Assembly: GCA_023150895.1 (NCBI GenBank) | Contig: JAKLJY010000075.1 | Location: forward strand, 1-39,723 | DNA: 39,723 nucleotides | Direction: 5' to 3' | Source of the DNA: Myxococcota bacterium | GTDB lineage: Bacteria > Myxococcota_A > Bradymonadia > UBA7976 > UBA1532 | Shown: positions 759-39,723 of the stretch, one piece after another | How the letters are laid out: each line of letters starts with the position of its first letter | Numbering within the stretch: position 1 is the first letter of the stretch | Notes under the pieces: model-generated | What the model saw: the letters and a program-made list of their open reading frames with translations, nothing else | Told to the model about the DNA's origin: nothing | The model's database searches: none | Translations under genes and position numbers: made by a program

Positions 759-1010
759 CCCCTTGATCCTTGCACCCTCGATCCCTTGATCCACGCTCAC
801 CGAGCCGAAAGCGGACGCGGCGCCGGCCCCGGCGCGCTTGCGCGCCGAGAAGGGCACGGCAGAGCGGTCGCCGGCGAGCCCGCCCGCGCCGGTCGTAACG
901 GCGCGCGGGGGGTCGCAGTGGTCGCCGGCGAGGCCGCAGCGAGTGCCCTGCCGCGCGGCAGCCCGGGTGGGGTCCAGGGCAAAGCCCTGGTCGCGCAATC
1001 CTCAACCGTC
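759..1010. repeat. Intergenic structured repeat element, copy A (longest copy), immediately 3' of caspase–FGE paralogue 1
   Basis: Shares 'cccttgatccttgc…gatcccttgatcc…cgagccgaaagcgg…ggtcgccggcgaggccgcagcgagtgccctg(t/c)cgcgcggcagcccgggt(t/g)gggtccagggc..agccctggtc' with 3802–3940 and 8090–8305. It contains two predicted hairpins (gccgc-a-gcga/tcgc-gcggc and ccaggg/ccctgg). ORF-track 'proteins' through it (MRAEKGTAERS…, MPPRSLDP…, MRAEEGPP…) share sequence only because of the repeat. Confidence 0.6.
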
Positions 1011-1116
1011 AGTGAGCCGGACACACGCCCCGCCGCGCGACTTGAACTCCGGCCCGGCCTCTGACCTGATCGTCTCGTCCGGCCGCGCCTCGGCCGCCAT
1101 CCAGAGGGTCCCGTCC

Positions 1117-21700: not shown

Positions 21701-23001
21701 GCGGTGCCGGCGACGTCGCCTTGCAGGCTCGGAGCGGCGGACCACAGGAGCGCGATCGCGCCGCTCACGTGGGGGGCGGCCATCGAGGTGCCCGACAACC
21801 ACGAGTACCCACCGCCGGGCACGGACGACAAGACATCCTGCCCGGGGGCGGAGATGTCGGGCTTCAGCGAGCCGTCGATCGACGAGGGGCCCATGCTCGA
21901 GAACCAGGCGAGTGCGTCCGTGGTGTCCGTCGCGCCGACGCCGATGGATTCCGGGTAGTCCGCGGGCGAGCCGACGGTGCTGCACCCCGGCCCGCTGTTG
22001 CCGTTGGAGAACACGGGGAAGATGCCGGCGTCGCGCCAGGCCTGCACGATGCCCTGGAAAAAGAGATCACCGCCGCCGCCGCCCCAGGAGTTGTTGATCA
22101 CATGGGGCGCGCGGGCCGGATCGGGGTTGAGCCCGTTCTCGTCCGTGGGCGCGAGCATCCACTCGCCCGCGGCGAGCAGCACGTCGTACGGACAACTGCC
22201 ATAGGGGCAGGCCACGGCCGCGATGAACTTCGCGCCCGGCGCGACGCCGATGGCAGTGCCCCCCGCGTCGTCACCCACCATCGTCCCCATCGTGTGCGTG
22301 CCGTGAATGTCGGTATCACACGGCGCGCCCCCGCAGGCGCCGGAGGGGTCGAAGAAGTTGTAACCCATGCCGGGCGTGGCCGGGTCGTGTCCGCGAAAAC
22401 GACCGGAGAGCGCGGGGTGACTCACGTCGATCCCCGTGTCGAGGCTGCCGATCACGATGCCTTCGCCCTGGCCGAACTGGCTCCATGCCTCGGGCGCCCG
22501 GATCCGGTCGAGGTTCCACTCGGCCGGACTGGCGGCCACCTTGCCGAGGTCCACCGGACGCGGCACGGTGAGGACGCGGTCGGCCACGATGGCCGCCACG
22601 TCGGCGCGGCGCGCGAGCGTGTCGAGCAGCGCGGCGTCGCCCTCGACCTTGATGGCGTTGTTGATGAAGAAGCTCTTGTGCGGCGCCCGGGCCTGCAACA
22701 AGGCGGCCCGGACGCCCGCCTGCGTCCGGTCGGCGTTCGCTCTCAGGGCGTCGCGTGCGGCCCGGACGCGGCCGCCGTGCGTGCGCTCGGCCTGCGCCGC
22801 GGCGAGGTCCGGGCGCCCCCGCACCAGCACCCAGAACTCGCCCTTGCCCGCGCCGAGCCGTTCGCGCAGACCCGCCTCCACGGTGGCCCGCTCCATGGCG
22901 GCCGGGGCCGCCTGGGCCATCGCGCCCGATGGGACGGACACGAGTGTACTCGTCGAACACAGGGCGGCTGCGAGCGCAGCGGCGCCTTTCCACGTCTTCA
23001 T
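18718..23001 (-). CDS. Secreted S8-family subtilisin-like serine peptidase (1427 aa) with an N-terminal propeptide, CarbopepD_reg-like β-sandwich repeats and C-terminal carbohydrate-binding-like domains
   Basis: Signal peptide MKTWKGAAALAAALCSTSTLVSVPSGAMA. Catalytic triad motifs are SLDTGID (Asp), HGTHTMGT (His) and GTSMAAPHVSGA (Ser). Repeated 'GxVTDxxGxPLxGxxV' units are typical of carboxypeptidase-regulatory-like domains. The C-terminal region is malectin/CBM-like. Confidence 0.85.
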   Translation of the reverse strand: MKTWKGAAALAAALCSTSTLVSVPSGAMAQAAPAAMERATVEAGLRERLGAGKGEFWVLVRGRPDLAAAQAERTHGGRVRAARDALRANADRTQAGVRAALLQARAPHKSFFINNAIKVEGDAALLDTLARRADVAAIVADRVLTVPRPVDLGKVAASPAEWNLDRIRAPEAWSQFGQGEGIVIGSLDTGIDVSHPALSGRFRGHDPATPGMGYNFFDPSGACGGAPCDTDIHGTHTMGTMVGDDAGGTAIGVAPGAKFIAAVACPYGSCPYDVLLAAGEWMLAPTDENGLNPDPARAPHVINNSWGGGGGDLFFQGIVQAWRDAGIFPVFSNGNSGPGCSTVGSPADYPESIGVGATDTTDALAWFSSMGPSSIDGSLKPDISAPGQDVLSSVPGGGYSWLSGTSMAAPHVSGAIALLWSAAPSLQGDVAGTAALLESTAADLAPVYGCGGDEADNNEFGEGRLDVRAALDAAPTTAGRVSGQVTDPTGAGLAGVQLVATRRDDGRVRRAVTDGAGAFSLLLAVDEASAGEPEIYDLSATAYGYLPAAEAGLAIVEDGEVTVLLVLADAPRHTLSGTVTDAAGTPLGGIDVSLVGAPVPTVRTDATGGFSFPDLPAGDYVVAASGGGCTDRGERAVSLAADLEVGLHLAQRTDAFGHTCRTGGDVAWIDADTDLGLSSLDDAAVTVELPFPVKFFDGTYTSATISTNGTISFDASGAFSYVNGPLPSPEEPNNALFPYWDDLVANGGVYSTVVGVEGDRVFVVEYRSMVLFGQSVDPFDFQVQIHEHTGRIDFLYRGITETTNGIGATVGLENAAGDVGFQYSMNQPVLFDGLVISFANPIGGEIAGAVVDGVDGLPVSGAIVSDDVTGRASVTGVDGRYSLTLPVGSHALTVSAPDYGTESLVAIIEENAVASADFALPSSRAVLETPEIFLKIAPGQQRTQVVAIENIGALSFAFDSAERDVARVPALAPRVAQAGHGDAATPPPQYQPRSAAAAQAGGDALVLMDYYPWNSDLHLQVFNANGIRVDIAGSAELAGLDLSTYGMVYVANDQPQFFYDTLAQVAPVFDAYVADGGFLLYGAASVGWNGGDGSVVPLPGGVGILTYQSFSDDVLANGHPTMQGVADPFEAGPASMAGFDGLPEGATVLTMGLDHGLPTGVEYDYGAGRVLALGQPMEFNQVSPWEPNRILENAIPYAAAFEPFVDVPWLALDPARGTVEAGASTDLAITVDTTGMSPGFYRARIVLVTNDPRNPRLEIPVTLNVPAFTKALNPGGGLYTDVVGDVWEADAPYTVARGFGYINKKSTSVATARAIAGTEDDALYKNLRRDPTAYRFDGLPSGTYEVELLFAEIVNKRPGAHLFDVIAEDIVLLPAHDIALEVGTFTAEHRRFLVPVTDGRLDVRFVNRAGAGKAEIGAIRVTQRPDR

Positions 23002-23199: not shown

Positions 23200-23493
23200 T
23201 CAGGATTTCGGCGTGCGGTTCGTCTGCGTTTCGGGTGGCGCGGACGTCGGTGGCGCGGCGTCCGCGGCCGAGAGCGCGGCAAAGCGCTTCAGAAGCTCGG
23301 CCTTGATGTCCGGCGGCATGGGCTCGGGCGGCAACTGACCGACCGTCTGAGCGGCGAGGCGCATCTGGCGGAGGTAGGCCCGGCAGGGGTGGCACATGCC
23401 CAGGTGGAACTGCACCTCGAGTCGCCGCCAGAACGACATGCGCCCTTCGGCGTAGTCGGTCACGATCTCGGTGAGTTCTCGGCAGCTCAGCAT
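23200..23493 (-). CDS. Anti-sigma factor, zf-HC2 (putative zinc-finger) family
   Basis: MLSCRELTEIVTDYAEGRMS…FHLGMCHPCRAYL contains the H-x3-C-x2-C zinc motif of ChrR/RsrA-like anti-sigma factors. It lies 4 bp downstream of the ECF sigma gene on the same strand. Confidence 0.7.
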   Translation of the reverse strand: MLSCRELTEIVTDYAEGRMSFWRRLEVQFHLGMCHPCRAYLRQMRLAAQTVGQLPPEPMPPDIKAELLKRFAALSAADAAPPTSAPPETQTNRTPKS

Positions 23494-23497
23494 GGCG

Positions 23498-24157
23498 TCA
23501 CTTCTTCTGGAGGAACTGTTCGAGCGCAGCCCGGACCCGGGTGCGCGCGCGGTGCAGCAGCACGCGCTGATTGATCTCGGAGATTTCCAGAATGTTACAG
23601 ACTTCTTCGCTCGTCGCGCCTTCGAGATCGCGCAGCGTCAGCACGGCGCGCTGCGCGGGCGGGAGCGCGTCGATCGCCGCGCCGATGACCTCGGCCGCGC
23701 CCCGGGTGGCGAGCAGCGACTCCGGCGTGTCCTGCACCCAGTCGGCGGGCGGTGAGGCCCAGTGACCGCCGGCCTTGAAACGGGCCGCGTCGACGGCGGC
23801 GGCCACGTCCCCGTCGGCCTCGACGAGCGCCGAGAACGGCACGTCGCGGCCATCCCGGCGGGCGCGGCTGCGCGCCTGATTGACCAGGATGCCGTAGATC
23901 CAGGTCTTGAGGCGCGCCCGGGGCTCGAAGCGCGGCAGACCGGCGATGACCCCGATCCAGGTCTCCTGCACGGCGTCTTCGGCGGCGGCACGATCGCGCA
24001 CGAAGACCTGTGCCAGGCGGACCATCGGGCCGTGGTGGCGATCGACGAGCGTCGCGAACGCCTGCGCATCGCCGCCGCGCAGGCGGGCGAGCAGCGCGAG
24101 GTCGTCGTCGGGCGTCGAACTGGGCGGGCGGGTGGTCACGGCGTAGTACGCGCGCAT
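23498..24157 (-). CDS. ECF-subfamily sigma-70 RNA polymerase sigma factor
   Basis: Region 2 (DDDLALLARLRGGDAQAFATLVDRHHGPMVRLAQVFVRDRAAAEDAVQETWIGV) and region 4 (LPPAQRAVLTLRDLEGATSEEVCNILEISEINQRVLLHRARTRVRAAL) are present. Start at MRAYYAV…, set by frame arithmetic. Confidence 0.85.
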   Translation of the reverse strand: MRAYYAVTTRPPSSTPDDDLALLARLRGGDAQAFATLVDRHHGPMVRLAQVFVRDRAAAEDAVQETWIGVIAGLPRFEPRARLKTWIYGILVNQARSRARRDGRDVPFSALVEADGDVAAAVDAARFKAGGHWASPPADWVQDTPESLLATRGAAEVIGAAIDALPPAQRAVLTLRDLEGATSEEVCNILEISEINQRVLLHRARTRVRAALEQFLQKK

Positions 24158-24230
24158 CGTGAAACGCGCGCCGAGGTCTGCCAAGGTCTTTCGTTCGCGT
24201 CCGTCGACGAGGGTTGGTACAGTCCCCCGC

Positions 24231-25649
24231 ATGTACGATTACGACTGGTTGGTCATCGGCTCCGGCCCCGCCGGCGAGAAGGGCGCCGTCCAGGCGGCGT
24301 GGTTCGGGCGCCGCGTGGCGGTGGTCGAGCGCGCGCCGGCGCACGGCGGGGCGTGCGTCCACACGGGCACGCTGCCGAGCAAGACGCTGCGCGAGACGGC
24401 CCTCTACCTCTCCGGGCACCGCCAGCGCGAAATGTACGGCCTCGACGTGCACCTGCAGCGCGATGTCTCCGTGAGCGATCTCATGTGCCGTCAAGCGGCC
24501 GTCCTCGGCAACGAAGCCGCCCGCATCGCGCGCAACTTCGAGCGCCACGGCGTGACGCAGCTTCGGGGCCACGCCGATTTTGTCGACGCGCACACCGTCC
24601 GCATCACGCCGCCCGAGGGCGCGGGGGCGCCCTACACGGTCACGGCCGACGCCATCCTGATTGCGACGGGCACGCGGCCGTTCCGCCCGGCGTGGGTGCC
24701 CTTCGGCGACCCGGGCATCGACTGCTCGGACACCATCCTGAACCTCGACCGCATCCCGCGCGCGATGGTGGTGCTCGGCGGGGGCGTGATCGGGTGCGAG
24801 TACGCCTCGATCTTCGCCGCCCTCGGCACGCGCGTCACCCTCGTCGAGGGGCGCGAACAGATCCTGGGCTTCCTGGACCCGGAGATCAACGCGCGGCTGT
24901 CGTCGGCGCTCGAGGCGCTCGGCTGCGAAATTCTGCTGAAACGCGAGGTCGTGCGCGTCGGGCGCGACGGCGACGGCACGCTCGTCTGTACGCTGGCGGA
25001 CGGGCGCGCGCTGCCGTGCGAGCGTCTGCTCTTCGCGGGCGGGCGCTCGGGCAACGTGGAGGGGCTCGCCCTGGAGAACGCCGGGATCACGCACGGGCCG
25101 CGCGGCCTGCTGAGCGTCGACGCGAACTACCGCGTGCAGAGCGCGCACGGCGGGCGCATCTACGCCGCGGGTGACATCATCGGCTTCCCGGCGCTGGCGT
25201 CGGTGGCGATGGAGCAGGGACGCGTCGCGGCGTGTCATGCCTTCGAACTCGGGTACAAGAGCGCCGTGTCGCCGCTGTTCCCCTATGGGCTCTATACCAT
25301 CCCGGAGGTGGCCACCATCGGCGAGACCGAGGCGCAGGCGACGGCTCGCGGCGAGGTGGTCGAGACCGGGCGGGCGTCCTACGGCGACAACGCCCGCGGT
25401 CAGATCGTGGGCGATCTGCAGGGGCTTCTGAAGGTGGTCTTCCGCGTGGCGGACAAGCGCTTGCTCGGCGTTCACATCATCGGTGAGCGGGCCACCGAGC
25501 TCGTGCACGTCGGCCAGACGGTGATGGCCCTCGACGGCACCATCGACACGCTGGTGCATCAGGTCTTCAACTTCCCGTCGCTGGGCGAGCTCTACAAGTA
25601 CGCCGCCTACGACGGCCTCGGGCGGCTCGCGCGGCGGGGGGCGAAGTGA
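24231..25649 (+). CDS. sthA: Soluble pyridine nucleotide transhydrogenase (Si-specific NAD(P)+ transhydrogenase)
   Basis: Collinear with E. coli SthA: MYDYDWLVIGSGPAGE (FAD GxGxxG), RVAVVER, GTLPSKTLRE, VLGGGVIGCEYASIF (NAD GxGxxG), YAAGDIIGFPALAS, LYTIPEVATIGETE, and no redox-active disulfide CxxxxC. Size is about 472 aa. Confidence 0.85.
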   Translation: MYDYDWLVIGSGPAGEKGAVQAAWFGRRVAVVERAPAHGGACVHTGTLPSKTLRETALYLSGHRQREMYGLDVHLQRDVSVSDLMCRQAAVLGNEAARIARNFERHGVTQLRGHADFVDAHTVRITPPEGAGAPYTVTADAILIATGTRPFRPAWVPFGDPGIDCSDTILNLDRIPRAMVVLGGGVIGCEYASIFAALGTRVTLVEGREQILGFLDPEINARLSSALEALGCEILLKREVVRVGRDGDGTLVCTLADGRALPCERLLFAGGRSGNVEGLALENAGITHGPRGLLSVDANYRVQSAHGGRIYAAGDIIGFPALASVAMEQGRVAACHAFELGYKSAVSPLFPYGLYTIPEVATIGETEAQATARGEVVETGRASYGDNARGQIVGDLQGLLKVVFRVADKRLLGVHIIGERATELVHVGQTVMALDGTIDTLVHQVFNFPSLGELYKYAAYDGLGRLARRGAK

Positions 25650-27532
25650 ACGCTCTCCTGCGGCGCGCGATGGGTGTGTTCGTCGTCGTGGGGATGCAGG
25701 CCTGCACCGAGACTTCGAGCGACACATCGACAAGTGCAGACGCGGCGCGGCCCGACGACGCTCGCTCCGTTCCGGAAGACACCATCGACCGCGGCCCGCC
25801 GGCGTCCGGAACGGACGGGTCGAACGACGCGCGCGTGGCGTTTGTCGATGCTCTCGACGCACCCGGCGCCGACGCTCGCGTGGTGCCCGACGCCGGTCCG
25901 CCCGTCGAGCCGGTCGATCCCACCGACCCCACCGACGCCGTCTTCGATTGGGACCATGTGATGACCGTCGAGGTGACGCTGCCCCCCGCGGACTGGGCGG
26001 CGCTGCGGCAACAGGGCCGCACGGATCTCGACACCCGTGGGGCGGACTGCATGGACGCGCCCTTTCCGTCGCCCTACACATGGTTCGAGGGCGACGCGAC
26101 CCTCGACGGGCGACCGTATGCCCGCGTCGGGGTGCGCAAGAAGGGCTTCTTCGGCTCGCTGAGCCGGTCGCGGCCGTCGCTCGTGCTCGATCTCGACCGC
26201 CACGTCGACGGGCAGGCGCACGAGACGCTGACCCGCATCGCCCTGAACAACGGCAAGCAGGATCCGAGTCGGCTGCGGACGTGCCTCTCGTACAGCATCC
26301 TCGCCGACGCGGGCGTGCCGGCGCCCCGGTGCCATTTCGCCCACGTCACGGTGAACGGCGAAGATCTGGGCCTGTACGCGCACGTCGAGAGCATCCGCAA
26401 ACCGTTCCTGCGCCGGCACTTCAGCGACGACGAGGGGCATCTGTACGAGGGGGCGCTGAGTGATTTCCGGCCCGGGTGGTCGGGCACCATCGAGCAGAAG
26501 ACCGACGAGGACGTGCCCCACCGGGCGCCGCTCGACGCCGTCACCGCGGCCGCCGCGGCCCCCGACGACACGCTGCTCGACGCGCTCGGCGCGGTGCTCG
26601 ATCTGCCGGCGTTCTATCGGTTCTGGGCGGCCGAGGTGATGATCGCGCACTGGGACGGGTACGCGGGCAATACGAACAACTTCTGGCTCTACGAGGACCC
26701 CGCGCAGGGGGGCCGCCTGGTCTTTCTGCCCTGGGGGCCGGACGGGGCGCTGCAGCCGCCCCGTGTGTTCTTCGAGGGGGCGATTGCGCCGGCGTCCGTC
26801 CTGGCGACGGGCATCCTCGCGCGCCGTCTGTACCTGCACCCCGAGGGTCGACGAGCGTATCTGACGACGCTGGCCCGCATGGTGGTCGATCACTGGTCGA
26901 CGGACGCGCTGCTCGCGCGGCTGGATCGCCTCGCCGCCCTCGTCGGGCCCCGTATGCCGCCCCAGCAACGCGCCGATCACACCCGCGCCGTCGCCGAGCT
27001 GCGGACGTGGGTCGCCGGGCAGCGCGGGCGACTCGAGGCCGAGCTCCTCCGGGGCGACGTGCCCTGGCCCTACCCGCTGCGGCCGTCGCTCTGCACGGTG
27101 CCCGCCGGTGAGCTGCACGGGGCGAGTCGGACGACCTGGGCCTCGTGGCCCACCGACGATGCATTTCGCTCGGGGTCGGGGCGTCTGGAGGGCACCTATC
27201 GCGACGTCCCGCTGGCCGTCCGGGCCGTGGGCGGCGCCGCAGGGCTCGACGAGAACGGGCAGGCCATCGCCCTCGTGCCCCTCTCGATGGCCGACGGTGC
27301 GCTCTGGTTCGTGTACCTCGCCTTCGACCGTGAACAGATCACGCCGGGCGAGCTCGACGCCGCGCAGTTGCCGGCCTGCTCGCTCAACGTCTTCGACGTC
27401 GAGACCGGCGCGGCGACCTACCTGGCGGACTGTCGTGACGGGCGACTGCGCATGACCGACGCCGCGCTCGTGCCGGGTGCCCCGTTTGCGTTCGAGTTCG
27501 ACGTCGGCCTCTGGGTGGGCCTCGGGCGTTGA
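25646..27532 (+). CDS. CotH-family (atypical kinase-like, spore-coat-protein-H-like) lipoprotein
   Basis: Lipobox VVVGMQAC. CotH signature blocks are present: NNGKQDPSRLRTCLSYSILADAGVP, VTVNGEDLGLYAHVESIRKPFLRRHF, HLYEG, AHWDGYAGNTNNFWLYEDP. The start overlaps the sthA stop (GTGA). The last ~30 codons are duplicated at 30338–30453. Confidence 0.65.
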   Translation: MNALLRRAMGVFVVVGMQACTETSSDTSTSADAARPDDARSVPEDTIDRGPPASGTDGSNDARVAFVDALDAPGADARVVPDAGPPVEPVDPTDPTDAVFDWDHVMTVEVTLPPADWAALRQQGRTDLDTRGADCMDAPFPSPYTWFEGDATLDGRPYARVGVRKKGFFGSLSRSRPSLVLDLDRHVDGQAHETLTRIALNNGKQDPSRLRTCLSYSILADAGVPAPRCHFAHVTVNGEDLGLYAHVESIRKPFLRRHFSDDEGHLYEGALSDFRPGWSGTIEQKTDEDVPHRAPLDAVTAAAAAPDDTLLDALGAVLDLPAFYRFWAAEVMIAHWDGYAGNTNNFWLYEDPAQGGRLVFLPWGPDGALQPPRVFFEGAIAPASVLATGILARRLYLHPEGRRAYLTTLARMVVDHWSTDALLARLDRLAALVGPRMPPQQRADHTRAVAELRTWVAGQRGRLEAELLRGDVPWPYPLRPSLCTVPAGELHGASRTTWASWPTDDAFRSGSGRLEGTYRDVPLAVRAVGGAAGLDENGQAIALVPLSMADGALWFVYLAFDREQITPGELDAAQLPACSLNVFDVETGAATYLADCRDGRLRMTDAALVPGAPFAFEFDVGLWVGLGR

Positions 27533-27564
27533 TGTCGTTTCGTCATCACCCTACACTCGGCGTC

Positions 27565-27819
27565 ATGGCAAGGACGCAGATTCAACTCCCCGACGCGGTA
27601 TACGAAGAACTCGAGATCCTCTCGGAACGTCTCGACGTCTCGATGGCGGAGCTCCTGCGGCGGGGGGCCGAGTACGTCCTTCGCGCACATCGTGCCGGAG
27701 AAGTGCCTTCTGCTCCGTGGGGGCTGCCCGAGCCACTCGACCTCGGCACGCCGATGGTCCCGGTTGATCGGTGGCGCGAACTCGCCGCCGGCCCCGGCGT
27801 CGAGGATGTTCTCCCGTGA
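27565..27819 (+). CDS. Ribbon-helix-helix (CopG/Arc-like) antitoxin
   Basis: MARTQIQLPDAVYEELEILSERLDVSMAELLRRGAEYVL has the RHH β-strand plus two helices. Its stop overlaps the start of the downstream PIN gene by 4 bp (GTGA). Confidence 0.55.
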   Translation: MARTQIQLPDAVYEELEILSERLDVSMAELLRRGAEYVLRAHRAGEVPSAPWGLPEPLDLGTPMVPVDRWRELAAGPGVEDVLP

Positions 27820-28046
27820 GGGAGGTCGTTGCTTTCGACACCAACATCCTCATCTACGCCCTGAACGCGAGTGTGCCCGAACACCTCGCGGCGCGGCGAT
27901 TCCTGGAAGAGCTTGGTGAACGCGACTCGGTGGTCGTCAGTGAGCTCGTGCTCATCGAACTCTACGGGCTGCTCCGGATTTCGCTCGGCGTCGCATTTTC
28001 GATGCTCGCCTGGCCGGCGCGCGCCCTCGACAGGGCACTGAAGTGA
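27816..28046 (+). pseudogene. Truncated VapC-like PIN-domain toxin (N-terminal about 76 aa only)
   Basis: VVAFDTNILIYALNASVPEHLAARRFLEEL is the canonical PIN N-terminus with its first acidic residue (…FDTN…). The ORF stops after about 76 aa, so the distal catalytic Asp residues are missing. The convergent lipoprotein gene ends 113 bp later. Confidence 0.45.
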
Positions 28047-28158
28047 ACCCCGAGGGCGAAGCGCTGCGCGCGGTGCCTGCGTGGCGAGTGAGTCGCCAGC
28101 ACCGATGGGCACCAATCGCAGCTCGGAATCGCCGCCCGTCGAACACGGGACCGCCTGC

Positions 28159-30273
28159 TCAGCGCCTACGGGGTGGCACGACGGCGTCCCCGTAAACGTC
28201 CTCGGCGAACGCAGCCAAGGCATCGGGCAGCGCGCGCGCGATCAGTTCGGCGTAGGTCGACACGTCATGTGCGTCGCGGACGTGCAGTTCGACGTGAGGG
28301 TTCTCGGCGGTGATCCGCTCGCGAACCGAGGCACCCGCCGGTAGCGTGCCGGTGGCGACGACGCGGTCGAACTCCGCGCGGGAGAGACCCGGCGGGAGCA
28401 CGACCTCCACGAGATGCGCCGACCTGTGACCCGTGTCGTCGAAGCGCGGGTCTCGCGGGCTCAGGAGGGCCGTCAGTCGCCTCGTCGCGTGGGGGCCGTG
28501 TCGGAACGGCAAACGTGCCGCCGACGCCGCGGCCGCCGTCTCGAACGCCTCGATGGCTGCCGGGGTCGCTCGGCCGAGGAGTGGCGCCTCCGCAGGAGTC
28601 AATTGGGGTCCCTCGTGAGTCCATTCGAGTGCCATCGTGAACGTCTCCGGGCTCGCGTCGGCACCTGGGGCAGGGCCAAGGACGACCGAGAGCCCGCGGC
28701 CCTTGGTCATGGAACGCGTCCAGACCTCCGGAACGCGCTCCGACATCTCCTGCGACCGCACGAACCCGGCCTTCGTCAGCCACGGCCCCAGGACTCGGCG
28801 AAGCCCCTCGGGACCGCCGAGCATTGCGTCTCCCGGCGCCACCGGGGCGGGGCTCCGGCGGATCTGCTCGGCCAATGCGCGGACCGCCTCGCGCTCGACC
28901 GCCGCCCGTGCCTCGACCTCGGCCTGCGCGTCGGCATACGGGCTGCGGCCGTCCGGCGTGATGGTATAGACCATGATGTCGGCCGTGTCCCGCGCGGTGG
29001 CTGCGTCGAAGCCGCGCGCGTCGCGTTCGATGAAGTCACCTTCGCCCGGCATACGCAGCGGGCCGCCCCTCATGGCTTGCGCCTGCGCGGACAGCACGAA
29101 GTTCGCCCCCACGGTCGTCATCTCGACGGCGCCTCCCGGGCGGGCGTCCCGCGGAACGGTCTCGCCCAGCTCGGGCCGGTCGGGCCAGCGCCCGTGCGCG
29201 TCATGAAAGCGGCGGGCGTGCAAACCGACGCGAAGGAGGGAGAGGGATGTCGCGAGCTCGGTGCGCGAACGAGCGTATTTGTCGGGCACGGCGAAGCCCA
29301 ACCCAAGCACCCGGCCCTTGTCGGCCGGTCGAATCACCCCGAAGTCCTCGTTTCGCATCGCGCCCAGCGACGCGCGAAGTGCCGCCGGGGCCCGCGCGAT
29401 GAGCGCATCGTCGATGCGGCCCCTCAGCACGACGAAGCCATCGTCCACGCGATTGCGCAGCGCGAGCCACGTCTCCCCCGGCAGTCCGGCTTCCAGGGCG
29501 GCCAGCGAGGCCTCGGCCCGCACGCGGCGGGGCGCCGATGCCCCCTGGAGGGCCGCCGCACACACATTTGCGAGCGGGCCTCGGAGCGCGAGGACATAGA
29601 CGGCGCGCAGGTTGTCGAGCGTCGCCCCGTCGCGGGCCAGCGCCAGCAGATCGAGGCAACGATCGACCGCCTCGTCGCGTGTGCTCGGGTCGGCGGCCAG
29701 GCGCCTGACCTCGACGAGCGCGAACCGGATCCGGGTGGTGATCTGTGCCCCGAGGAGGCCGGGCGAGGTCGACGGATCGCCCAGGGTCAGCTCGACCTTC
29801 TCGAGCGCCCGGCCCGCGCGAAACACGGCTTCGGCGACGGGGCGGCACACCAGGAGTCGCCGGGCCAGGCCGGCGGGAAGGCGCGTGGCCGACCGGCGTC
29901 CGTCCGCCACGTCTACGAGCGCTTTCCGGTGAGACGCTTCCTCTGCTTCGGCGCCCAGGGGGAACGAGAGGGCACAGCCGTCGGGCACCCTGGCGCGCAG
30001 ATCGTCGAACGAGGCCCGCTCACCCGGGTACTCGGCCGGGTCGAAGTGCAGCGGCCGCGGGCGCGCGCTGTTCGCCGCGACGAGGGCCTCGAGGGTCGAG
30101 ATGAACGCCTCTCGGGCGGGCTCCAGCTCGTCGTCACCCGAGGTCTCGGGCGGGGCGGGCCGCTCGCCCGGGGACCGATCGCAGGCTCCGGTCAGGGCCA
30201 GGGCCAGGGGGACCGCGGCAAGCAAGCCGAACTGTCGAAGACCGCACAACCCCGGAGCGCGCGCAGAAATCAT
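28159..30273 (-). CDS. Lipoprotein of unknown function (about 704 aa)
   Basis: MISARAPGLCGLRQFGLLAAVPLALALTGAC carries the lipobox L-T-G-A-C. Long clean ORF; Ala/Arg-rich helical protein with no recognised motif. Confidence 0.5.
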   Translation of the reverse strand: MISARAPGLCGLRQFGLLAAVPLALALTGACDRSPGERPAPPETSGDDELEPAREAFISTLEALVAANSARPRPLHFDPAEYPGERASFDDLRARVPDGCALSFPLGAEAEEASHRKALVDVADGRRSATRLPAGLARRLLVCRPVAEAVFRAGRALEKVELTLGDPSTSPGLLGAQITTRIRFALVEVRRLAADPSTRDEAVDRCLDLLALARDGATLDNLRAVYVLALRGPLANVCAAALQGASAPRRVRAEASLAALEAGLPGETWLALRNRVDDGFVVLRGRIDDALIARAPAALRASLGAMRNEDFGVIRPADKGRVLGLGFAVPDKYARSRTELATSLSLLRVGLHARRFHDAHGRWPDRPELGETVPRDARPGGAVEMTTVGANFVLSAQAQAMRGGPLRMPGEGDFIERDARGFDAATARDTADIMVYTITPDGRSPYADAQAEVEARAAVEREAVRALAEQIRRSPAPVAPGDAMLGGPEGLRRVLGPWLTKAGFVRSQEMSERVPEVWTRSMTKGRGLSVVLGPAPGADASPETFTMALEWTHEGPQLTPAEAPLLGRATPAAIEAFETAAAASAARLPFRHGPHATRRLTALLSPRDPRFDDTGHRSAHLVEVVLPPGLSRAEFDRVVATGTLPAGASVRERITAENPHVELHVRDAHDVSTYAELIARALPDALAAFAEDVYGDAVVPPRRR

Positions 30274-30337
30274 CGTTCGAGCCTGCACGACGCGCAGGCT
30301 TGGGGCAAGAGGCGACTGACCCGCCGGGGCGAGGCCG

Positions 30338-30453
30338 CCGGGTTCGACGGCCAACTGCGCGTGACCGACGCCGCGCTCGTGCCGGGGGCCCCGTTCGCGT
30401 TCGAGTTCGACGTCGGCCTCTGGGTGGGCCTCGACACCGCGGCGGGGGAGTGA
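30338..30453 (+). repeat. Direct-repeat copy of the CotH gene 3' end (remnant fragment)
   Basis: caactgcgcgtgaccgacgccgcgctcgtgccggg(g/t)gccccgtt(c/t)gcgttcgagttcgacgtcggcctctgggtgggcctcg is about 95% identical to 27436–27525. It translates to …LRVTDAALVPGAPFAFEFDVGLWVGL… followed by a different tail. Confidence 0.6.
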
Positions 30454-30578
30454 CGGGGCCGGGCACTTCGGCCGCCCTGCGCGCAGGCCCGTGCGGTACA
30501 CTGTGTCCCGTGACGACCGACGACCCCAGTACGTCTACGCGCGCCCGTGCGGCCGCCCGCCGCCGGGCAACGTGGCCC

Positions 30579-30764
30579 ATGCGAATCACGTCGCTGGACG
30601 CCGCGGTCGACGACGACGGCTACGTCGACGCGCCCCCGGGTGAGCGCGTGGCGATGGTCTACGAGCTGACGCTGGCCGCCTGGGCGCTGTCGGGGCGCCC
30701 GATGCCGACGTACTCGCGGGCAGAGATCCCCGGTCGCCTGATTCGGGGGGACTCGAGCCCGTGA
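30579..30764 (+). CDS. Small ORF (61 aa) overlapping the start of the downstream nucleotidyltransferase-fold gene
   Basis: MRITSLDAAVDDDGYVDAPPGERVAMVYELTLAAWALSG…; its stop overlaps the downstream start (GTGA). No recognisable motif; could be a cognate partner/antitoxin or a non-coding leader. Confidence 0.3.
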   Translation: MRITSLDAAVDDDGYVDAPPGERVAMVYELTLAAWALSGRPMPTYSRAEIPGRLIRGDSSP

Positions 30765-31237
30765 GTGACGCACCGCGCCTCCTCGAAGACACCCGCGACC
30801 TGCTCGACGCCTTCGAGGACGCGGGGGTGGCCTACATCGTCGTGGGTGCGCACGCGCTGGCCGCGCACGGGATTCCCCGGGCAACGGGCGACTTCGATGT
30901 GCTCGTCCGACCGGATCGCGCGAACGCCACGCGGGTCCTCGCCGCGCTCCGGCACTTCGGCGCGCCCGTCGAGGCACACGGCCTCGAGGTCAGCGACTTC
31001 ACGCGCCCGGCGACGGTGTATCAGATGGGGCTTCCGCCGCGGCGCATCGACGTGCTGACGTCGGTCAGCGGCGTCGACTTCGACGAGGCCTGGGCCTCAC
31101 GCATCGAGGCCGAGGTCGACGGGCGCCGGCTGCCGGTGCTCGGACGCGCCGCCCTGCTGAAGAACAAGCGCGCCAGCGGGCGCCCGAAGGACCTCCTCGA
31201 TGTGGCGGCGCTCGAGCGATCATCCGGCGCGCGGTAG
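30761..31237 (+). CDS. Minimal nucleotidyltransferase (MNT)-fold protein
   Basis: IVVGAHALAAHGIPRATGDFDVLV matches the G[SA]x9–13DxD nucleotidyltransferase signature followed by a β-strand. The C-terminal …NKRASGRPKDLLDVAAL is typical of small NTase-fold toxin/antitoxin family members. Size is 158 aa. Confidence 0.5.
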   Translation: MSDAPRLLEDTRDLLDAFEDAGVAYIVVGAHALAAHGIPRATGDFDVLVRPDRANATRVLAALRHFGAPVEAHGLEVSDFTRPATVYQMGLPPRRIDVLTSVSGVDFDEAWASRIEAEVDGRRLPVLGRAALLKNKRASGRPKDLLDVAALERSSGAR

Positions 31238-31361
31238 AATGATCGCCGCACACGCGCCTGACCGAGAATCGCGCCGCCCCGGTGAATACCGCCGGCGTCC
31301 CTCTCGTCGGAGCCTCCGGAACTCGTCAGCACGAAACGGTACGGATCGAAACGGAAATCAC

Positions 31362-32339
31362 ATGCGGTCGACCCCGATGATCAGAAGCCCTTTCCACGCC
31401 GCGGCGAGCACCGTCGCGCTGTTCTCGGCCCTCGCAGGACTCGGTGCATGCAGCTCCGACGACGACGGAGCGGGGAACATCACCGCCTTCGGGCAGCAGT
31501 ACAGCGAGATCGTGTGCAGCGGGTTCGCCAGTTGTTGCGCGGACACGGGGCAGCCCGTGGACAAGGGCCAGTGTCAGCAGCTCTTCAACTACCAGATCGA
31601 CGAGTTCGAAGCCGGTATCAACAGCGGCAAGTTCACCTTCGACGCGTCGGCGGCCAATGAGTGCCTCGCGGCCGTGCGGGCCATGTCGAACCTGTGCACG
31701 GAAGAGCCCCCCACGGTCTGCGACAAGGTCACGAAGGGCACCGTCGGGGCCAACGAGCGCTGCGACGACGACGACGAATGCGCGGTTCCGCCCGGCGGAC
31801 AGGCCTCCTGTAACTACAGCGGCGAGGCCGAGTACGGCCGCTGCGAACAGACCGTGCGGGGCAAGGTGGGCGACGACTGCCAGCAAACGTGCGAGGACCT
31901 CGGCGGCGGGGGCTGGTCGTGCGGCGGCAGCGGTGAGGACCCCGTCGACGGGATCTCCACGGCCTGTTACCGCAACGACAACCTCGTCTGCGATTACGAG
32001 ACGAAGAAGTGCGTCGCCCTCGGCGCGGCCGGCGCCGACTGTGGCAACGATGACGACTGCGCGCAGGGGCTCTACTGCCCGTTCGAGACCAACAAGTGTA
32101 CGGCCCTCGGTGCCGCGGGCGCGGCCTGCACGTCGAACAGCGCCTGCGAGAGCGACTACTGCGATCCGTCGGACGTGTGCGCCCCGCCGCTCGCGCTCGG
32201 GGCGGCCTGTGACGCGAACGCGGAGCGCGACCCCTGCGGGGCGGACGGGCGCTGTTCCGAAGAGGGCAAGTGCGAGGAAGGCGGCCTCTTGGGCGGGGGC
32301 GGTGGCACTGCGCTCGTCTGCGGTTTCCTGGGCGGGTGA
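31362..32339 (+). CDS. Cysteine-rich repeat lipoprotein
   Basis: Lipobox in MRSTPMIRSPFHAAASTVALFSALAGLGAC. Multiple repeats of the C-x-ALGAAGAxC-x5-C-x4-C type, Asp/Gly/Cys-rich, indicating an extracellular disulfide-rich domain. Confidence 0.6.
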   Translation: MRSTPMIRSPFHAAASTVALFSALAGLGACSSDDDGAGNITAFGQQYSEIVCSGFASCCADTGQPVDKGQCQQLFNYQIDEFEAGINSGKFTFDASAANECLAAVRAMSNLCTEEPPTVCDKVTKGTVGANERCDDDDECAVPPGGQASCNYSGEAEYGRCEQTVRGKVGDDCQQTCEDLGGGGWSCGGSGEDPVDGISTACYRNDNLVCDYETKKCVALGAAGADCGNDDDCAQGLYCPFETNKCTALGAAGAACTSNSACESDYCDPSDVCAPPLALGAACDANAERDPCGADGRCSEEGKCEEGGLLGGGGGTALVCGFLGG

Positions 32340-32363
32340 CCCGCGGGCCCGGCCGTCGCGGCG

Positions 32364-33593
32364 TCAGCGCGGCGGCAGCGACGTGCGGCGCAGGCCGGCG
32401 GCGGCGACCAGGAAGACGGCGATGCCGCCGATGCCCAGGCCCGCCTCGGTGTAGAGCATGCCGTCGGCGCCCTTCACGTCGGCGACGTAGCCGAGCAACA
32501 ACCCCACCCACCAGATGGGGAAGTTCGAGAGGGTGGCGTAGAGGGTGTATTTCGTGGCCGCCGAGCCGGGGCCGATGGCGTCGAGCACGACGGCGGTGAA
32601 GGCGGCGTAGCTCAGCCCGACACCCAAGGAATACACCACGTTGCCCCCGACGTAGGTGGCGGGGGTCATGGGCAGCGCGGCCATGCCGCCGGCGACGATG
32701 GCCAGCGAGAGACCCATCGCGGCGTAGACGGCGCGCGGGGGGAAACGCATGCAGAGCCAACCGCCCATGAAGCACCCGGCGCCGTTGATGAGGCCGGCCA
32801 TGACACCCTGAACGAGCGCGACCTCGTGCTCGCCGGCGCCCCACTTCTCGGCGACGGCGGACTGCGTCAACACACCCTGCGCGGCGCCGGTGCCGATGGG
32901 CAGGAAACACAGGATGGCGCTCGCGAGGCCGCCCTGCGTGCGGGTCATGCCTCGGATGTTCGCGAAGACCTGCCCGATGGCCGCCTTCGGGCCCTGCCCG
33001 TGCCCCTCGGCCGGGAGGTCCGGCAGCGCGCGCAGGGCGAGGCAGCAGGCCGCGAAGAGCACCGCGAAGATGAGCCCGGTCATCCAGGCTTCGGGCAGGG
33101 CGTTGAGCAGCAGGAGCCCGACGCCGCCGCCGATGCCGGCCCCGCCGAGGTTGCCGGCCTGGAACCACGCGCTGACGCGGCCGATTTGATCAACGGGCGT
33201 GACCTGCGCCATCAGGGCCTCGACGGCCATGCCCACCATCGAGTTGACGAGGTTGGCCGCGGCGATGACCGCCAGCAGGAGCGGCAGCGTCTCCGGGCCG
33301 AGGGGGATGCTGGCGATGGCCGCGACGCCCACCGACGAGCCGAGCGCCGAGATGTAATACCAGCGCTTGGGCGTCAGCGTGGTGTCCACCAGGGGCGCCC
33401 AGATCCACTTCAGCCAGTTCATCATCAGGCCGGCGGCGCCCAAAAAAGCGCTCTCGGTGATGGACAGGCCGTGGCGCGTGCCCAGGAAGGTGAGCGCGAC
33501 CGTGACGAAACCGCCGAGGGCGCCGAACGGGAAGTACAGGATGGTGTAGACGACCGGGTGGGGGACCCGGTGCGGGTGCGCGGTCGCCGTCAC
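32364..33593 (-). CDS. MFS transporter, AmpG/PAT-family-like (muropeptide or lysophospholipid permease type)
   Basis: Multiple TM segments. MNWLKWIWAPLVD matches the AmpG/LplT loop-1 signature (LKFLWxPLxD). The GTG start overlaps the stop of the upstream vault-protein gene (GTGA). Length is 409 aa, confirmed by counting. Confidence 0.7.
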   Translation of the reverse strand: MTATAHPHRVPHPVVYTILYFPFGALGGFVTVALTFLGTRHGLSITESAFLGAAGLMMNWLKWIWAPLVDTTLTPKRWYYISALGSSVGVAAIASIPLGPETLPLLLAVIAAANLVNSMVGMAVEALMAQVTPVDQIGRVSAWFQAGNLGGAGIGGGVGLLLLNALPEAWMTGLIFAVLFAACCLALRALPDLPAEGHGQGPKAAIGQVFANIRGMTRTQGGLASAILCFLPIGTGAAQGVLTQSAVAEKWGAGEHEVALVQGVMAGLINGAGCFMGGWLCMRFPPRAVYAAMGLSLAIVAGGMAALPMTPATYVGGNVVYSLGVGLSYAAFTAVVLDAIGPGSAATKYTLYATLSNFPIWWVGLLLGYVADVKGADGMLYTEAGLGIGGIAVFLVAAAGLRRTSLPPR

Positions 33594-36115
33594 GTCGCGT
33601 CCGACTTCGGGCCGGTGAGGGCCTTGCCGTCGAGGACCCGCCCGAGGATGTTCGAGAGCGGCGTGCCCTCGAAGACCTTGGCGATGACGTCGGTGAGGTT
33701 CTTGCCGCCGATGAACTGCTGCACGCTCATGGCCTCGGCGATCTTGACGAGGACCTCGTGGTTGGAGAGCGCGAGCAGCGCCTCGCTGAAGCCGCCCTGG
33801 GCCGCCTCGAAGCGGGCGACGGTGGCCTCGACCTCGGCCTTGAGCGCGGCGAGGCGCAGCGCCTGCTCGCCCTCGCTGATCTCGTAGCGGATGGCCGCCG
33901 CGGTGCGATCCCGCTCGAGGCCGGCGGTGTGTTCGACCCCGACCGCCTCGGCCCGCGCCTCGGCGACCTTCTTCTGTTCGACGAGGGCCTTGATCTCGCC
34001 GATGAGGTGGGCGAGCTGCACGCGCTGCTTGTTCTCGGCCTCCTCGACGCCGAGCTCGGACAAGCGCCGCGACGTCTGTGCTTTCGCCTCCGCCGTCTGA
34101 CGATTGATGTCCTCCTGTCGCTGCGTGGCCTCGAGCGCGCGATTCGCCCGCTGCAGCGCGATGTTGGACTCGACGGCCTCGTGCTGCGCGAGATTGAGCA
34201 GGCGCGCGATGTTCTCGTCGCCGATGGTCACGCCGAGGACCTCGACGTCCGTGACGTGCATGCCGTTCTCCTTGAACTTCATGCCCGTCCGCCCGCCGCC
34301 CTCGGCAGGCACGCCGAGGATGGTGTCGCGGATGACGTCGACGCTCTGTCGGTAGAACTGATCGACGCTGATGCGTTTGACGACGCCCTTGAGCACCGAG
34401 CGGACGTGGTCGCAGAGGAACTTGACGTAGTTCTCGACCTCGAACCACCGCATGGGATCGTCGGTGAAGTTCACGCGCAGCGAGTATTCGAGGCGCACCC
34501 GCACGTGATCGGCCGTCTCGACCTCGCAGATGTCCGAGACCTTGTTGTTGAGCACGCGCAGGAACACCGTGCGCAGCAGTTTGTCGGTGCTCTTCGGTTT
34601 GCCCGTCGAGAGTTCGATGACCTCGAAGGACTCGTCGTAGGCGAGCAGCAGGTTCTTCGGGCCGACCTCGACGCGGCGGTTGCCCTTCTTGTCGACGATC
34701 ATCAGCGCGTAGCCCACCCACACGCTGATGGCGGGCACGCCCTCGAACTTGGTGTTGAAGACCAGCGTGCGGGGCTGGTTGAACTGACTCACGCGGTCGA
34801 CGGTGTCACCGGCGCTCGCGGCGCGCTCCCGGGCGGCGCCGACCCCGGCGGCGACGGCTTGTGCGGCGGGCACGGCGGCCGCCTTGGCGCCGGGGGCCTG
34901 CGCGCGCTGGTAGTCCCCCTCGGAGATGACGCCCGCCCGAGCCCCCGGGGTCTCGTTGGCCATCGCGCGCAGCGCGCGGTTGTAGGCGAGGGCCTCCTCG
35001 TTGCCGGGGTACCACGTCGCACACTCGCGATCCGACAGGATGCGGCGCACGATGATCTCGTCGACCGGGTTGGGCAGGAGCATCAGCGGGCCGGCCGCCA
35101 TGCGGATCTCGCCCGACTTCCGGTTCATGACATAGCGCGCCTCACCGGCGGGAATGGCCACGGCGAAGTGTTTCTCGCGCCCGTCGTACCGCACGAGGGA
35201 GTGTTCTTCGCGCGGGAAGTAGATGGCCGTCTCTTTGCCCGTGATGAAGAGCTCGTCGCCCTCGGAGTACGCCCGCCCCTGCTCGTCTTTGTAGGGGGCG
35301 ATGATCTTGATGTGCAGGCCCTGAATCTCGTTGAGCTCCAGGGCTTTGAACTTGCGGTGGCCTTCTTTGACGATGAACGTCTCGGTCGGCTCGGGGAAGA
35401 CCACCTGCGGCCCGCGCTCGTAGCGCTTCTTGCCGTTCTGATCCACCAGGATGCAGTACTCGAGGCGCTCGAGCGTCAGCGCATCGCGGACGTAGTGGTT
35501 GTTTTCGTCCGTGACGACCCCCACACCCGTCGGCGGAATGTAAAACGAGACGTCCGTCCCCTTGATGATGAGCAGTTTACCGACGGTGAGGTCCGCCGGG
35601 ACGCGTGAGACCGGGGCCTCGGCCGCGCCCTCGGTGGCCGGCTTGACGACCGCCGTCGCCCAGTTCTTGCGTGCCTCTTCCTCGTTGTAGACCCGCACGA
35701 GCAGGTACTGATTCGAGCGCAGGTGGTGCCCCTGCACCAGCTTGACGATCTGCCCCGGCCACAGCGCGAACGCGCACGGCCCCGTGATGTTGATCTTGCG
35801 GCCGACCTCGAGATCCGGCCCGGGGTGAACGCCGCCCGGCGTGGGGTGGTCGTTGCGGACCGACGGGTTCTTGAGCACCAGGTAGAAGCCCTCGGGCGCG
35901 ATGGCGATCTGCTGCACCGCCTCTTCGAGGCCGCAGGGCTCGAAGCGTTTGCTCGTCGGGTTGAAGACGACCGGCCGCTCCTGCGCGGTGGGGTTGATGA
36001 CCGTCGGGCCGGTGTAGGTCTTCACCACGCCCTTCGTCACGTCCTGCATGTACGCGTATTCGCTGGGGGCCAGCACCAGATCTCGTTTGCTCACGCGGTC
36101 GTCCACGGTCGGCAC
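33590..36115 (-). CDS. Major vault protein (MVP) homologue
   Basis: Collinear with eukaryotic MVP: the N-terminal MVP-repeat start (LVLAPSEYAYMQDVTKGVVKTYTGP against human [26 protein letters not shown]); repeated β-rich modules; shoulder-domain blocks RVEVGPKNLLLAYDESFEVIELSTGKPKS (human [30 protein letters not shown]) and EVETADHVRVRLEYSLRVNFTDDP (human [27 protein letters not shown]); and an SPFH-like/coiled-coil cap region (…NIALQRANRALEATQRQEDINRQTAEAKA…). Confidence 0.75.
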   Translation of the reverse strand: MPTVDDRVSKRDLVLAPSEYAYMQDVTKGVVKTYTGPTVINPTAQERPVVFNPTSKRFEPCGLEEAVQQIAIAPEGFYLVLKNPSVRNDHPTPGGVHPGPDLEVGRKINITGPCAFALWPGQIVKLVQGHHLRSNQYLLVRVYNEEEARKNWATAVVKPATEGAAEAPVSRVPADLTVGKLLIIKGTDVSFYIPPTGVGVVTDENNHYVRDALTLERLEYCILVDQNGKKRYERGPQVVFPEPTETFIVKEGHRKFKALELNEIQGLHIKIIAPYKDEQGRAYSEGDELFITGKETAIYFPREEHSLVRYDGREKHFAVAIPAGEARYVMNRKSGEIRMAAGPLMLLPNPVDEIIVRRILSDRECATWYPGNEEALAYNRALRAMANETPGARAGVISEGDYQRAQAPGAKAAAVPAAQAVAAGVGAARERAASAGDTVDRVSQFNQPRTLVFNTKFEGVPAISVWVGYALMIVDKKGNRRVEVGPKNLLLAYDESFEVIELSTGKPKSTDKLLRTVFLRVLNNKVSDICEVETADHVRVRLEYSLRVNFTDDPMRWFEVENYVKFLCDHVRSVLKGVVKRISVDQFYRQSVDVIRDTILGVPAEGGGRTGMKFKENGMHVTDVEVLGVTIGDENIARLLNLAQHEAVESNIALQRANRALEATQRQEDINRQTAEAKAQTSRRLSELGVEEAENKQRVQLAHLIGEIKALVEQKKVAEARAEAVGVEHTAGLERDRTAAAIRYEISEGEQALRLAALKAEVEATVARFEAAQGGFSEALLALSNHEVLVKIAEAMSVQQFIGGKNLTDVIAKVFEGTPLSNILGRVLDGKALTGPKSDAT

Positions 36116-39418: not shown

Positions 39419-39723
39419 TATAGCCCGCAATCGCCGCCGTCGAAACCGCAGGCGGCCACGTCGCACTCGACGTCGCACCATCCGTCGCCGGGCCAGTCGG
39501 CGGGGCAGCCGGGGGCGCACTCCGCACCGGGATCCGCGCCCCCGCCGCAGTCGCCGCCGTCGAAGTTGCACTCGGCCACGTCGCATTCGGCGTCGCACCA
39601 GCCATCGCCGGGCCAGTCGGCGGGGCAGCCGGGGGCGCACTCGCCGCCGGGGTCGCCGCCGCCCGCACAGTCGCCGTCGTCGAAGAAGCACGCCGCGAAG
39701 TAGCAGTAGTCGTCGCAGTAACC
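39419..39723 (-). CDS. 3' end of a second LNR-repeat protein gene (partial; continues beyond the window end)
   Basis: Reverse-complement translation of 39422–39723 gives …CDDYCYFAACFFDDGDCAGGGDPGGECAPGCPADWPGDGWCDAECDVAECNFDGGDCGGGADPGAECAPGCPADWPGDGWCDVECDVAACGFDGGDCGL*. No Met lies inside the window, so the ORF track does not list it. Confidence 0.55.

Follow-up and report, generated by a model that had tools for sequence, protein, structure and literature searches.

The sequence examined here is a contig of 39,723 nucleotides (nt; 72% GC) from a metagenome-assembled genome (MAG) of a Myxococcota bacterium, which was analysed over its whole length and is referred to as the window. At its centre of interest, a gene encoding a CotH kinase-family protein is followed by a small block of genes and then by a second copy of the gene's own 3' end. 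The block comprises an RHH (CopG-like) antitoxin gene, the remains of a VapC/PIN toxin gene and an orphan lipoprotein gene (Table 1). The window CotH protein is identical to NCBI entry MCK6573467.1 and the lipoprotein corresponds to MCK6573470.1; loci used for comparison are denoted by handles beginning with L.

Table 1. Features of the CotH locus (window coordinates; aa, amino acids; ORF, open reading frame; TA, toxin–antitoxin)
Feature	Coordinates	Strand	Remarks
CotH kinase-family gene, 628 aa	25646..27532	+	PF08757, E 8e-34, 118 bits vs 23.8 gathering score
Left 88-nt copy	27437..27524	+	Working 3' end of CotH; the single copy sits here at empty sites
Left end of inserted segment, with new CotH tail and stop	27525..27564	+	Sequence reading; L011 comparison
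RHH (CopG-like) antitoxin gene, 84 aa, intact	27565..27819	+	RHH_1/RHH_3/RHH_5 matches, E ~2e-4
Dead VapC/PIN toxin ORF, 76 codons from GTG	27816..28046	+	Pfam PIN positions 3-47 of 120 only
Orphan lipoprotein gene, 704 aa, convergent with TA pair	28159..30273	-	Lipobox-type N-terminus by eye
Right end of inserted segment, 72 nt upstream of lipoprotein start	30274..30345	.	Ends at junction GGGTTC/GACGG
Relic: right 88-nt copy (30346-30433) plus ancestral six-codon tail DTAAGE and stop (30434-30453)	30346..30453	+	Non-coding here
84-aa ORF (30510-30764) overlapping 158-aa nucleotidyltransferase-like gene (30761-31237)	30510..31237	+	Outside insert; AbiEii/NTP_transf_5 matches weak, below cut-off

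The duplicated CotH end and the genes that it brackets

A repeat search followed by pairwise alignment paired positions 27437-27524 with 30346-30433, the two copies of 88 nt being identical at 83 positions (94.3%) and lying 2,909 nt apart, start to start. Such a pair has a chance expectation of ~1e-28 in 39.7 kb of sequence at 72% GC, and no third copy is present in the window. An earlier sequence-only reading of this DNA had described a ~90-bp direct repeat of the CotH 3' end, which the alignment bears out; the range that it gave for the right copy (30338-30453) overshoots, the homology beginning at 30346 (or 30345, if one ambiguous C is counted) and stopping at 30433, after which a different tail with an in-frame stop at its end occupies 30434-30453. 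Both copies are in the CotH frame, the left reading DVGLWVGLGR before a TGA stop at 27530-27532, and the right reading DVGLWVGLDTAAGE, i.e. ending LWVGLDTAAGE, before a stop at 30451-30453. On neither strand does the 88-mer form a better fold than shuffled sequence does (z +0.7 to +1.5), and no structure, attC-like or other, was recovered.

The present end of the CotH gene consists of a two-codon tail (GR) and a stop, neither of which is ancestral. Translation of the relic yields the C-terminus of the intact CotH proteins of L010 and P0249, and the CotH genes at empty sites, where the block is absent, are intact and end LWVGLD[TA]A[AP]GE before the stop, as the relic reads. The tail of the outgroup L001 (GVDDAPAP, then stop) also shows homology at the nucleotide level to the tail of the relic, and not to GR and its stop. 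Because the tails at the empty sites and in L001 match that of the relic, the right copy is evidently the orphaned original 3' end of the single CotH gene. The odd repeat is thereby explained as a displaced gene end, and the suggestion of the sequence-only reading that a second CotH paralogue had been displaced is corrected. That the right copy might be the remnant of a second, tandem CotH gene, mostly deleted or overwritten, could be argued from its being in frame and terminating a plus-strand ORF of 679 codons (28414-30453), but this ORF merely shadows the lipoprotein gene in antisense, and upstream of 30346 it bears no resemblance to CotH. Moreover, strains with an empty site have one CotH gene that ends in exactly this way, contiguous with the same downstream genes, and a second CotH gene was seen in no strain, leaving the paralogue explanation with hardly any credence.

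Between the left copy and the antitoxin gene lies a promoter-like pair of hexamers, TTGATG (27529-27534) and TACACT (27552-27557), which are separated by 17 nt and end 7 nt before the RHH ATG, with the new CotH stop falling within the -35-like hexamer. An imperfect palindrome, TGATGTCG/CGTCATCA, at 27530-27548 folds as a hairpin. A homologous TA module at the unrelated locus L011 has TTGATG-17-TATAAT at the equivalent place, and homology to L011 begins 2-4 nt past the repeat in the window and its close relatives. A consensus promoter scan called nothing in 27300-30900, the candidate hexamers matching at 8 of 12 positions; judged from the comparison with L011, 27529-27557 is nevertheless a candidate TA promoter/operator.

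VapBC is a chromosomal type II module in which an RHH/CopG antitoxin is paired with a PIN RNase, and it can decay to an orphan antitoxin. The RHH matches in the window are weak, RHH_1 scoring 21.6 bits against a cut-off of 20.5 and RHH_3 and RHH_5 falling just under theirs. The antitoxin ORF is intact in the window, L005 and L007, and frameshifted in L006. As the sequence-only reading had it, the antitoxin TGA overlaps the toxin GTG (27816-27819) and the PIN frame ends after 76 aa, both of which follow from the ORFs and the Pfam matches. What remains of the toxin comprises residues 1-53 in frame (27816-27974) and an out-of-frame island of 49 nt (27971-28019, residues ~102-118) that carries three substitutions, residues 54-101 and 119-157 of the intact allele being missing. 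Alignment to L005, L006 and L007 resolved the loss into a deletion of 151 nt (junction 27970/27977, GCTCCG microhomology) and another of 131 nt (junction 28019/28020, CGC microhomology). The missing C-terminal PIN sequence was sought with tblastn, and apart from the island no further piece was found elsewhere on the contig.

The VapC protein of L005 is intact at 157 aa and scores 93.9 bits against TIGR00028 (cut-off 73.6), whereas those of L006 and L007 are full length but interrupted by a TAC to TAG change at codon 50 (window 27963-27965). Since the window has deletions and L006/L007 a nonsense codon, the toxin has been killed at least twice independently. The sequencing frameshift that the sequence-only reading had named as an alternative does not fit an intact allele in one strain, a nonsense codon in two others and the two window deletions (151 and 131 nt), and the view of that reading that the toxin was inactivated and the antitoxin kept agrees with the two deletions relative to L005 and the intact RHH frame. 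Values of dN/dS are 0.7-1.0 for the PIN remnant, ~0.51 for the lipoprotein gene and 0.25 for RHH (versus L005), compared with 0.02-0.12 for the CotH, MFS and Pyr_redox flanks. The GC content of the TA region is 65-67%, against 70-75% around it.

With an incomplete PIN domain and the coupled upstream RHH gene retained, the window module is, as far as its sequence can tell, a dead member of the VapBC family. It resembles VapBC in the overlapping stop and start, in the palindrome-bearing putative promoter upstream and in the intact L005 allele that passes TIGR00028, and it resembles decaying VapBC modules in that the toxin was lost first and the antitoxin ORF persists. Nothing distinguishes it from ordinary VapBC decay, the added value being a series of several states at one orthologous site. 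The surviving RHH protein may serve as an orphan antitoxin or repressor, or may merely not yet have decayed. The same TA module at L011 is 80% identical at the nucleotide level over 730 nt, with 81% aa identity in VapC, and lies there without repeats.

The convergent gene of 704 codons between the repeats, also reported in the sequence-only reading, is read as a putative lipoprotein gene. Its product begins MISARAPGLCGLRQFGLLAAVPLALALTGAC/D, with Cys31 and the putative signal peptide invariant among homologues (Cys31 in six), the lipobox having been judged by eye against a PROSITE-type rule. No Pfam or NCBIfam match was obtained, and homologues are restricted to five cluster representatives in 1.84 billion proteins. 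The gene is intact in all four carriers of the block (702-704 aa, 91-97% aa identity). An AF2 model has a pLDDT of 57 and a helical N-terminal half, and Foldseek searches of the PDB with this model returned generic helical-repeat matches only, all with E > 0.1, and no fold match. More distant homologues in L008 and L009 (73-75% aa identity) occupy other contexts. Flanking direct repeats were found neither around these nor around the TA module of L011; the duplication thus does not belong to these modules in general.

In L008 (4032-6825) and L009 (117-4195) the lipoprotein homologues adjoin PIN pairs with Phd/YefM antitoxins, and in L008 the lipoprotein start overlaps the PIN stop, within a defence-like island (HsdR, AAA_15/21, Hen1). 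A conserved lipoprotein-PIN operon was considered and rejected, the PIN proteins of L008 and L009 being unrelated in sequence to the VapC described here; the association may be a matter of chance (n=3).

Carriers, empty sites and the age of the event

The closest named relative of the window, with 73% aa identity in CotH, is L003, a Bradymonadia MAG that comes from Lake Mendota and belongs to the same species as L001. A scan of genome contigs returned only this relative and one at 47%, and no close strain. The exact CotH sequence of the window was absent from an assembly index and was recovered by homology search (P0001). L001 and L003 share with the window the Pyr_redox-CotH arrangement on the left and MFS-Vault on the right, synteny being kept, and in L003 Uma2, NmrA and TetR genes stand between CotH and MFS in place of window 27533-32363. 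Since L003 holds other genes there, the CotH-MFS interval is a variable region. Close carrier strains were reached through a search for lipoprotein homologues, which gave L005 (Logan; 97.7-98.3% nt identity to the window over 19 kb) and L006 and L007 (JGI; 91-98% identity). Empty sites were found by a pattern scan of metagenome contigs, in which a single match marked the first empty site, and among the members of the CotH 90% cluster. The clade is of freshwater habitat and consists of Bradymonadia-like Myxococcota.

L005, L006 and L007 have both copies of the repeat, the same junctions and the same gene order as the window. Clean empty sites, in which a single 88-mer joins the flanks, are present in five contigs (L010, L012, L013, L016 and L017). 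In L012 and L013, window segments 23253-27524 and 30345-33560 are collinear at 96% identity and overlap by the single copy of 88/89 nt, and L010 and L016/L017 have the same single-copy arrangement. Immediately behind CotH at the empty sites come the 84-aa ORF and the nucleotidyltransferase-like, Cys-rich protein and MFS genes. Comparison of the orthologous locus, with its five empty sites and three further carriers, bears out the footprint of an insertion, one of the events (insertion, deletion or recombination) to which the sequence-only reading had ascribed the block.

L014 and L015, whose lineage branches most basally and differs from the window by 14-17% at the nucleotide level in the CotH flank, were at first taken from their gene lists to be clean empty sites as well, a status that BLAST overturned, together with the inference of a recent insertion that had been drawn from it. 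Some 470 nt of block remnants lie in these contigs between the CotH stop and a truncated second copy, namely a 33-nt stretch of RHH (window 27720-27752), the spacer between the PIN and lipoprotein genes together with the 3' end of the latter (28060-28224), and a segment (30196-30422) that comprises the 5' end of the lipoprotein gene, the 72 nt upstream of it and 77 nt of the relic. These remnants are 87-91% identical to the window, similar to the divergence of the flank, and the junction GGGTTC/GACGG, which marks the left edge of the relic, is shared by the window, L005, L006, L007 and L014/L015. Because the diverged L014 and L015 keep remnants with the same relic junction, the event was single and old, predating the split of L014 from the strain group of the window. 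The clean empty sites are best read as the outcome of precise repeat-mediated loss, or of replacement by empty alleles via homologous recombination.

Decay of the cargo can be followed from an intact VapC in L005, through the nonsense codon of L006/L007 and the two deletions of the window, to L014/L015, in which nearly everything has been deleted. In trees built from the flanks, alleles with and without the block are interleaved; for instance, L005 (occupied) is 1.4% distant from L012 (empty) in the left flank, and L007 (occupied) only 0.1% from L012 in the MFS gene.

The two copies of the repeat differ at 19 of 77 sites in L014, as opposed to 1-6 of 77 in the window, L005, L006 and L007. Copies in the close group share derived variants and a three-site haplotype, and across strains the left copy of the window is one substitution removed from the relic of L006/L007 and the window relic two from the CotH copy of L005. 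Few sites are involved, and these patterns are suggestive of gene conversion between the two copies, in addition to recombination between strains. The five differences between the window copies would be no clock for the duplication, since they probably reflect, for the most part, copy exchange and strain mosaicism. A crossover-point analysis of the L010 single copy against the two copies of L005 had too few sites to be decisive. Identity of the window to L005 is 99-100%, but falls to 92-95% in three patches (20800-21700, 26200-28300 and 30100-30700), the middle one of which is L007-like (97-99%).

Origin of the block

The block, the large window ORFs and the gene lists for L005, L006, L007, L012 and other related loci yielded no integrase or transposase gene, save for an IS4 transposase in L010, which lies outside the block and is the sole mobility gene in the related loci. 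The sequence-only reading, which had noted that no integrase is present, was correct in this respect. No terminal inverted repeats join the block ends, and microhomology at the junctions amounts to only 0-1 nt. The cargo is modular and foreign-looking, the TA module and the lipoprotein gene occurring separately elsewhere. An illegitimate event is favoured because there is no recombinase, no inverted repeat, no attC fold and little microhomology, and because the modules are separate elsewhere and the TA region is of lower GC content. It seems probable, on balance, that integrase-independent illegitimate recombination placed the block behind CotH and was succeeded by repeat-mediated loss, copy exchange and decay of the cargo.

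In an ancestor, one illegitimate event would have put ~3.1 kb between CotH and its original downstream neighbours, the inserted segment carrying a self-contained RHH-VapC cassette and the orphan lipoprotein gene, and the CotH end being left duplicated. The route might have been a duplicative insertion (a staggered break with fill-in, or a template switch) or, as another option, one-ended homologous recombination in which the opposite end was joined illegitimately. The left copy still completes CotH, its GR tail and stop being supplied in this strain by the edge of the candidate TA promoter region, and the right copy with its ancestral tail persists upstream of the lipoprotein gene as a non-coding relic. 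Thereafter, the direct repeats and homologous recombination with empty alleles could bring about precise loss or regain of the block, and hence a present/absent polymorphism, while the copies would exchange sequence by gene conversion. From general TA biology, an active VapC would be expected to penalise loss of the block (addiction), and with VapC dead, as in the window, the block would be free to decay and be lost.

The arrangement has a published counterpart in the displacement of C-terminal ends at Rhs and type VI secretion system (T6SS) effector-immunity loci, for which the proposed route is homology-facilitated illegitimate recombination (Kirchberger et al. 2017, PMC5361080, citing Jackson et al. 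2009 for Rhs). Common to both are a conserved gene body, new DNA and cargo at the 3' end, an old end orphaned downstream, the lack of an integrase, and arrays that are later shuffled between strains by homologous recombination. Unlike those loci, the new and old ends here are near-identical over 88 nt and differ only in GR versus DTAAGE before the stop, no new domain or toxin tip has been acquired, the gene is a CotH kinase homologue as opposed to a polymorphic toxin, and the cargo is unrelated to the function of the gene. An insertion sequence or transposon is a poor likeness, there being no transposase, no terminal inverted repeats and a duplication of at least 88 nt, as is an integron cassette, in view of the missing attC fold and integrase and the fact that the 88-mer is CotH coding sequence.

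Several observations weigh against the favoured sequence of events. No donor arrangement was found and the molecular route is inferred; a target duplication of at least 88 bp is unusual for a simple insertion; and an integrase could still have acted in trans from beyond the MAG contigs. The interleaving of occupied and empty alleles fits recombination, but would fit a mobile element equally well. In L014 the long ancestral tail comes after the left copy and leads into the middle of RHH. At least 108 nt may thus have been duplicated originally, with the window junction at 27524/27525 arising by a later deletion; alternatively, the left junction of L014 may itself be a later, one-ended recombination. 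All of the sequences compared are metagenome assemblies, and the mosaicism of the window could stem either from homologous recombination between strains or from a strain-chimeric consensus assembly. That the repeat or the PIN truncation is itself an artefact of MAG assembly, as the mosaic nature of the contig relative to L005 and the short repeats flanking the deletions might suggest, is nonetheless highly improbable: the two-copy arrangement recurs in independent NCBI, Logan and JGI assemblies, the toxin is independently broken in L006/L007, and losses of 151 and 131 nt together with three substitutions in a 49-nt island are atypical of assembly error.

The features of L014 also agree with a sub-variant in which TA and lipoprotein are not the insert. 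Here the occupied state would be the older, and the relic would have come from the right, when a fragment from a strain with CotH, the small ORF and the nucleotidyltransferase-like gene recombined homologously on its right, at the Cys-rich/MFS genes, and its left end, situated 108 nt within CotH, became attached by an illegitimate join to a point upstream of the lipoprotein gene, such that two alternative downstream segments became stacked. A left copy with a long tail followed by TA remnants, as in L014, is what would be expected had the TA and lipoprotein genes originally been located behind an intact CotH stop, no long target duplication is needed, and the model published for Rhs/T6SS arrays (PMC5361080) is one-ended recombination by which 3' ends are orphaned. 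Set against this, no CotH-TA-lipoprotein allele without the relic was found, the outgroup L001 has neither segment, and the left junction of the window type would call for an extra deletion; the variant is accordingly considered unlikely, although it is the strongest of the alternatives. Rather less probable again is that the block is an integrase-less element akin to the cis-mobilizable elements (CIMEs), which are decayed integrative and conjugative or integrative and mobilizable elements that keep attL and attR at the 3' end of their target gene and have lost the integrase (Guedon et al. 2017, PMC5704250). In that event the repeats would be the attL and attR of a recombinase that targets the CotH 3' end, its gene lost or acting in trans, and the TA module would stabilise the element. 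The block is small and lacks recombination genes, its direct repeats stem from the 3' end of a conserved gene whose reading frame the element DNA closes, relatives have precise empty sites, occupied and empty alleles intermingle in the flank trees, and the cargo includes a TA module. All of this agrees with such an element, as does the definition of a CIME, with its retained attachment sites and lost integration and transfer genes (PMC5704250). However, the four carrier contigs, the longest of them 39.7 kb, contain no recombinase, and the ~3.1 kb is filled by three tightly packed genes with no room for a deleted integrase. The block was never seen as a unit elsewhere, its two modules being separate and without repeats; the identity stops 20 nt before the original stop, so that the gene end is not exactly restored; and the L014 remnants are as diverged as the flanks, suggesting a vertical history over recent mobility. 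Nor did signs emerge of any parent element, cognate integrase or accretion with a further element.

A slightly slimmer chance still is given to the more specific idea that the repeats are functional att sites of a minimal cassette of TA and surface lipoprotein, moved by a recombinase encoded elsewhere. Were it correct, this would be a CIME-like element in Bradymonadia/Myxococcota with VapBC as an anti-loss device, and the interleaving of alleles would be real mobility. A block excised as a circle would have a junction reading from the lipoprotein-upstream GGGTTC through the 88-mer to GGCGTTGATG.

To return to the illegitimate insertion favoured here, the locus is an instance of ordinary genome turnover, well documented in this case, and no new kind of system. 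The islet, to judge by the strain comparison, is strain-variable, old, decaying and bounded by a displaced gene end. It offers a compact natural series at one site, in which the islet is intact, has had its toxin killed in two ways, is nearly erased or is cleanly lost, and in which the copies seem to homogenise each other. As such it can serve as an example when asking how chromosomal TA modules break down, whether an active toxin shields adjacent DNA from repeat-mediated deletion, and what the origin of integrase-free insertions is.

Neighbouring genes

The 84-aa ORF and the nucleotidyltransferase-like gene, resident neighbours of the original CotH end, constitute a possible second TA-like pair. 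This pair decays in parallel and has been lost or broken independently in four lineages, with deletions in L006/L007 (30464-31120), L016/L017 (30992-31110) and L014, and in L010 the IS4-family transposase gene (L010 41-1342) replaces the 3' part of the pair. Downstream, a gene at 31200-32339 (+) encodes a Cys-rich secreted protein with a weak Dickkopf_N match and, among the conserved genes of the locus, diverges fastest (75-92% nt identity where MFS genes are at 93-99%; dN/dS ~0.22).

Further to the right, an 841-aa protein encoded at 33590-36115 (-) has a Major Vault Protein shoulder domain (PF11978 in orthologues), and its gene adjoins the MFS gene in all of the related strains and in the 73% outgroup. 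A gene at 37149-39167 (-), in which tandem DNA repeats with units of 117-138 nt (37490-38850) specify ~10 Notch LNR domains (PF00066, E 2e-69), encodes a 672-aa protein, and a second array (39425-39693) runs off the contig end; arrays of LNR domains are unusual in bacteria.

On the other side of CotH, 18718-23001 (-) encodes a secreted subtilase of 1,427 aa (Peptidase_S8, three CarboxypepD_reg domains and Malectin) that adjoins an ECF sigma/anti-sigma pair. The subtilase gene is present in the window and L005, and L012 has a methyltransferase gene and others in its place, indicating a second variable region. Finally, in the 987-aa product of the gene at 838-3801 (+), a caspase domain (Peptidase_C14) is fused to three PEGA domains and an FGE-sulfatase domain.

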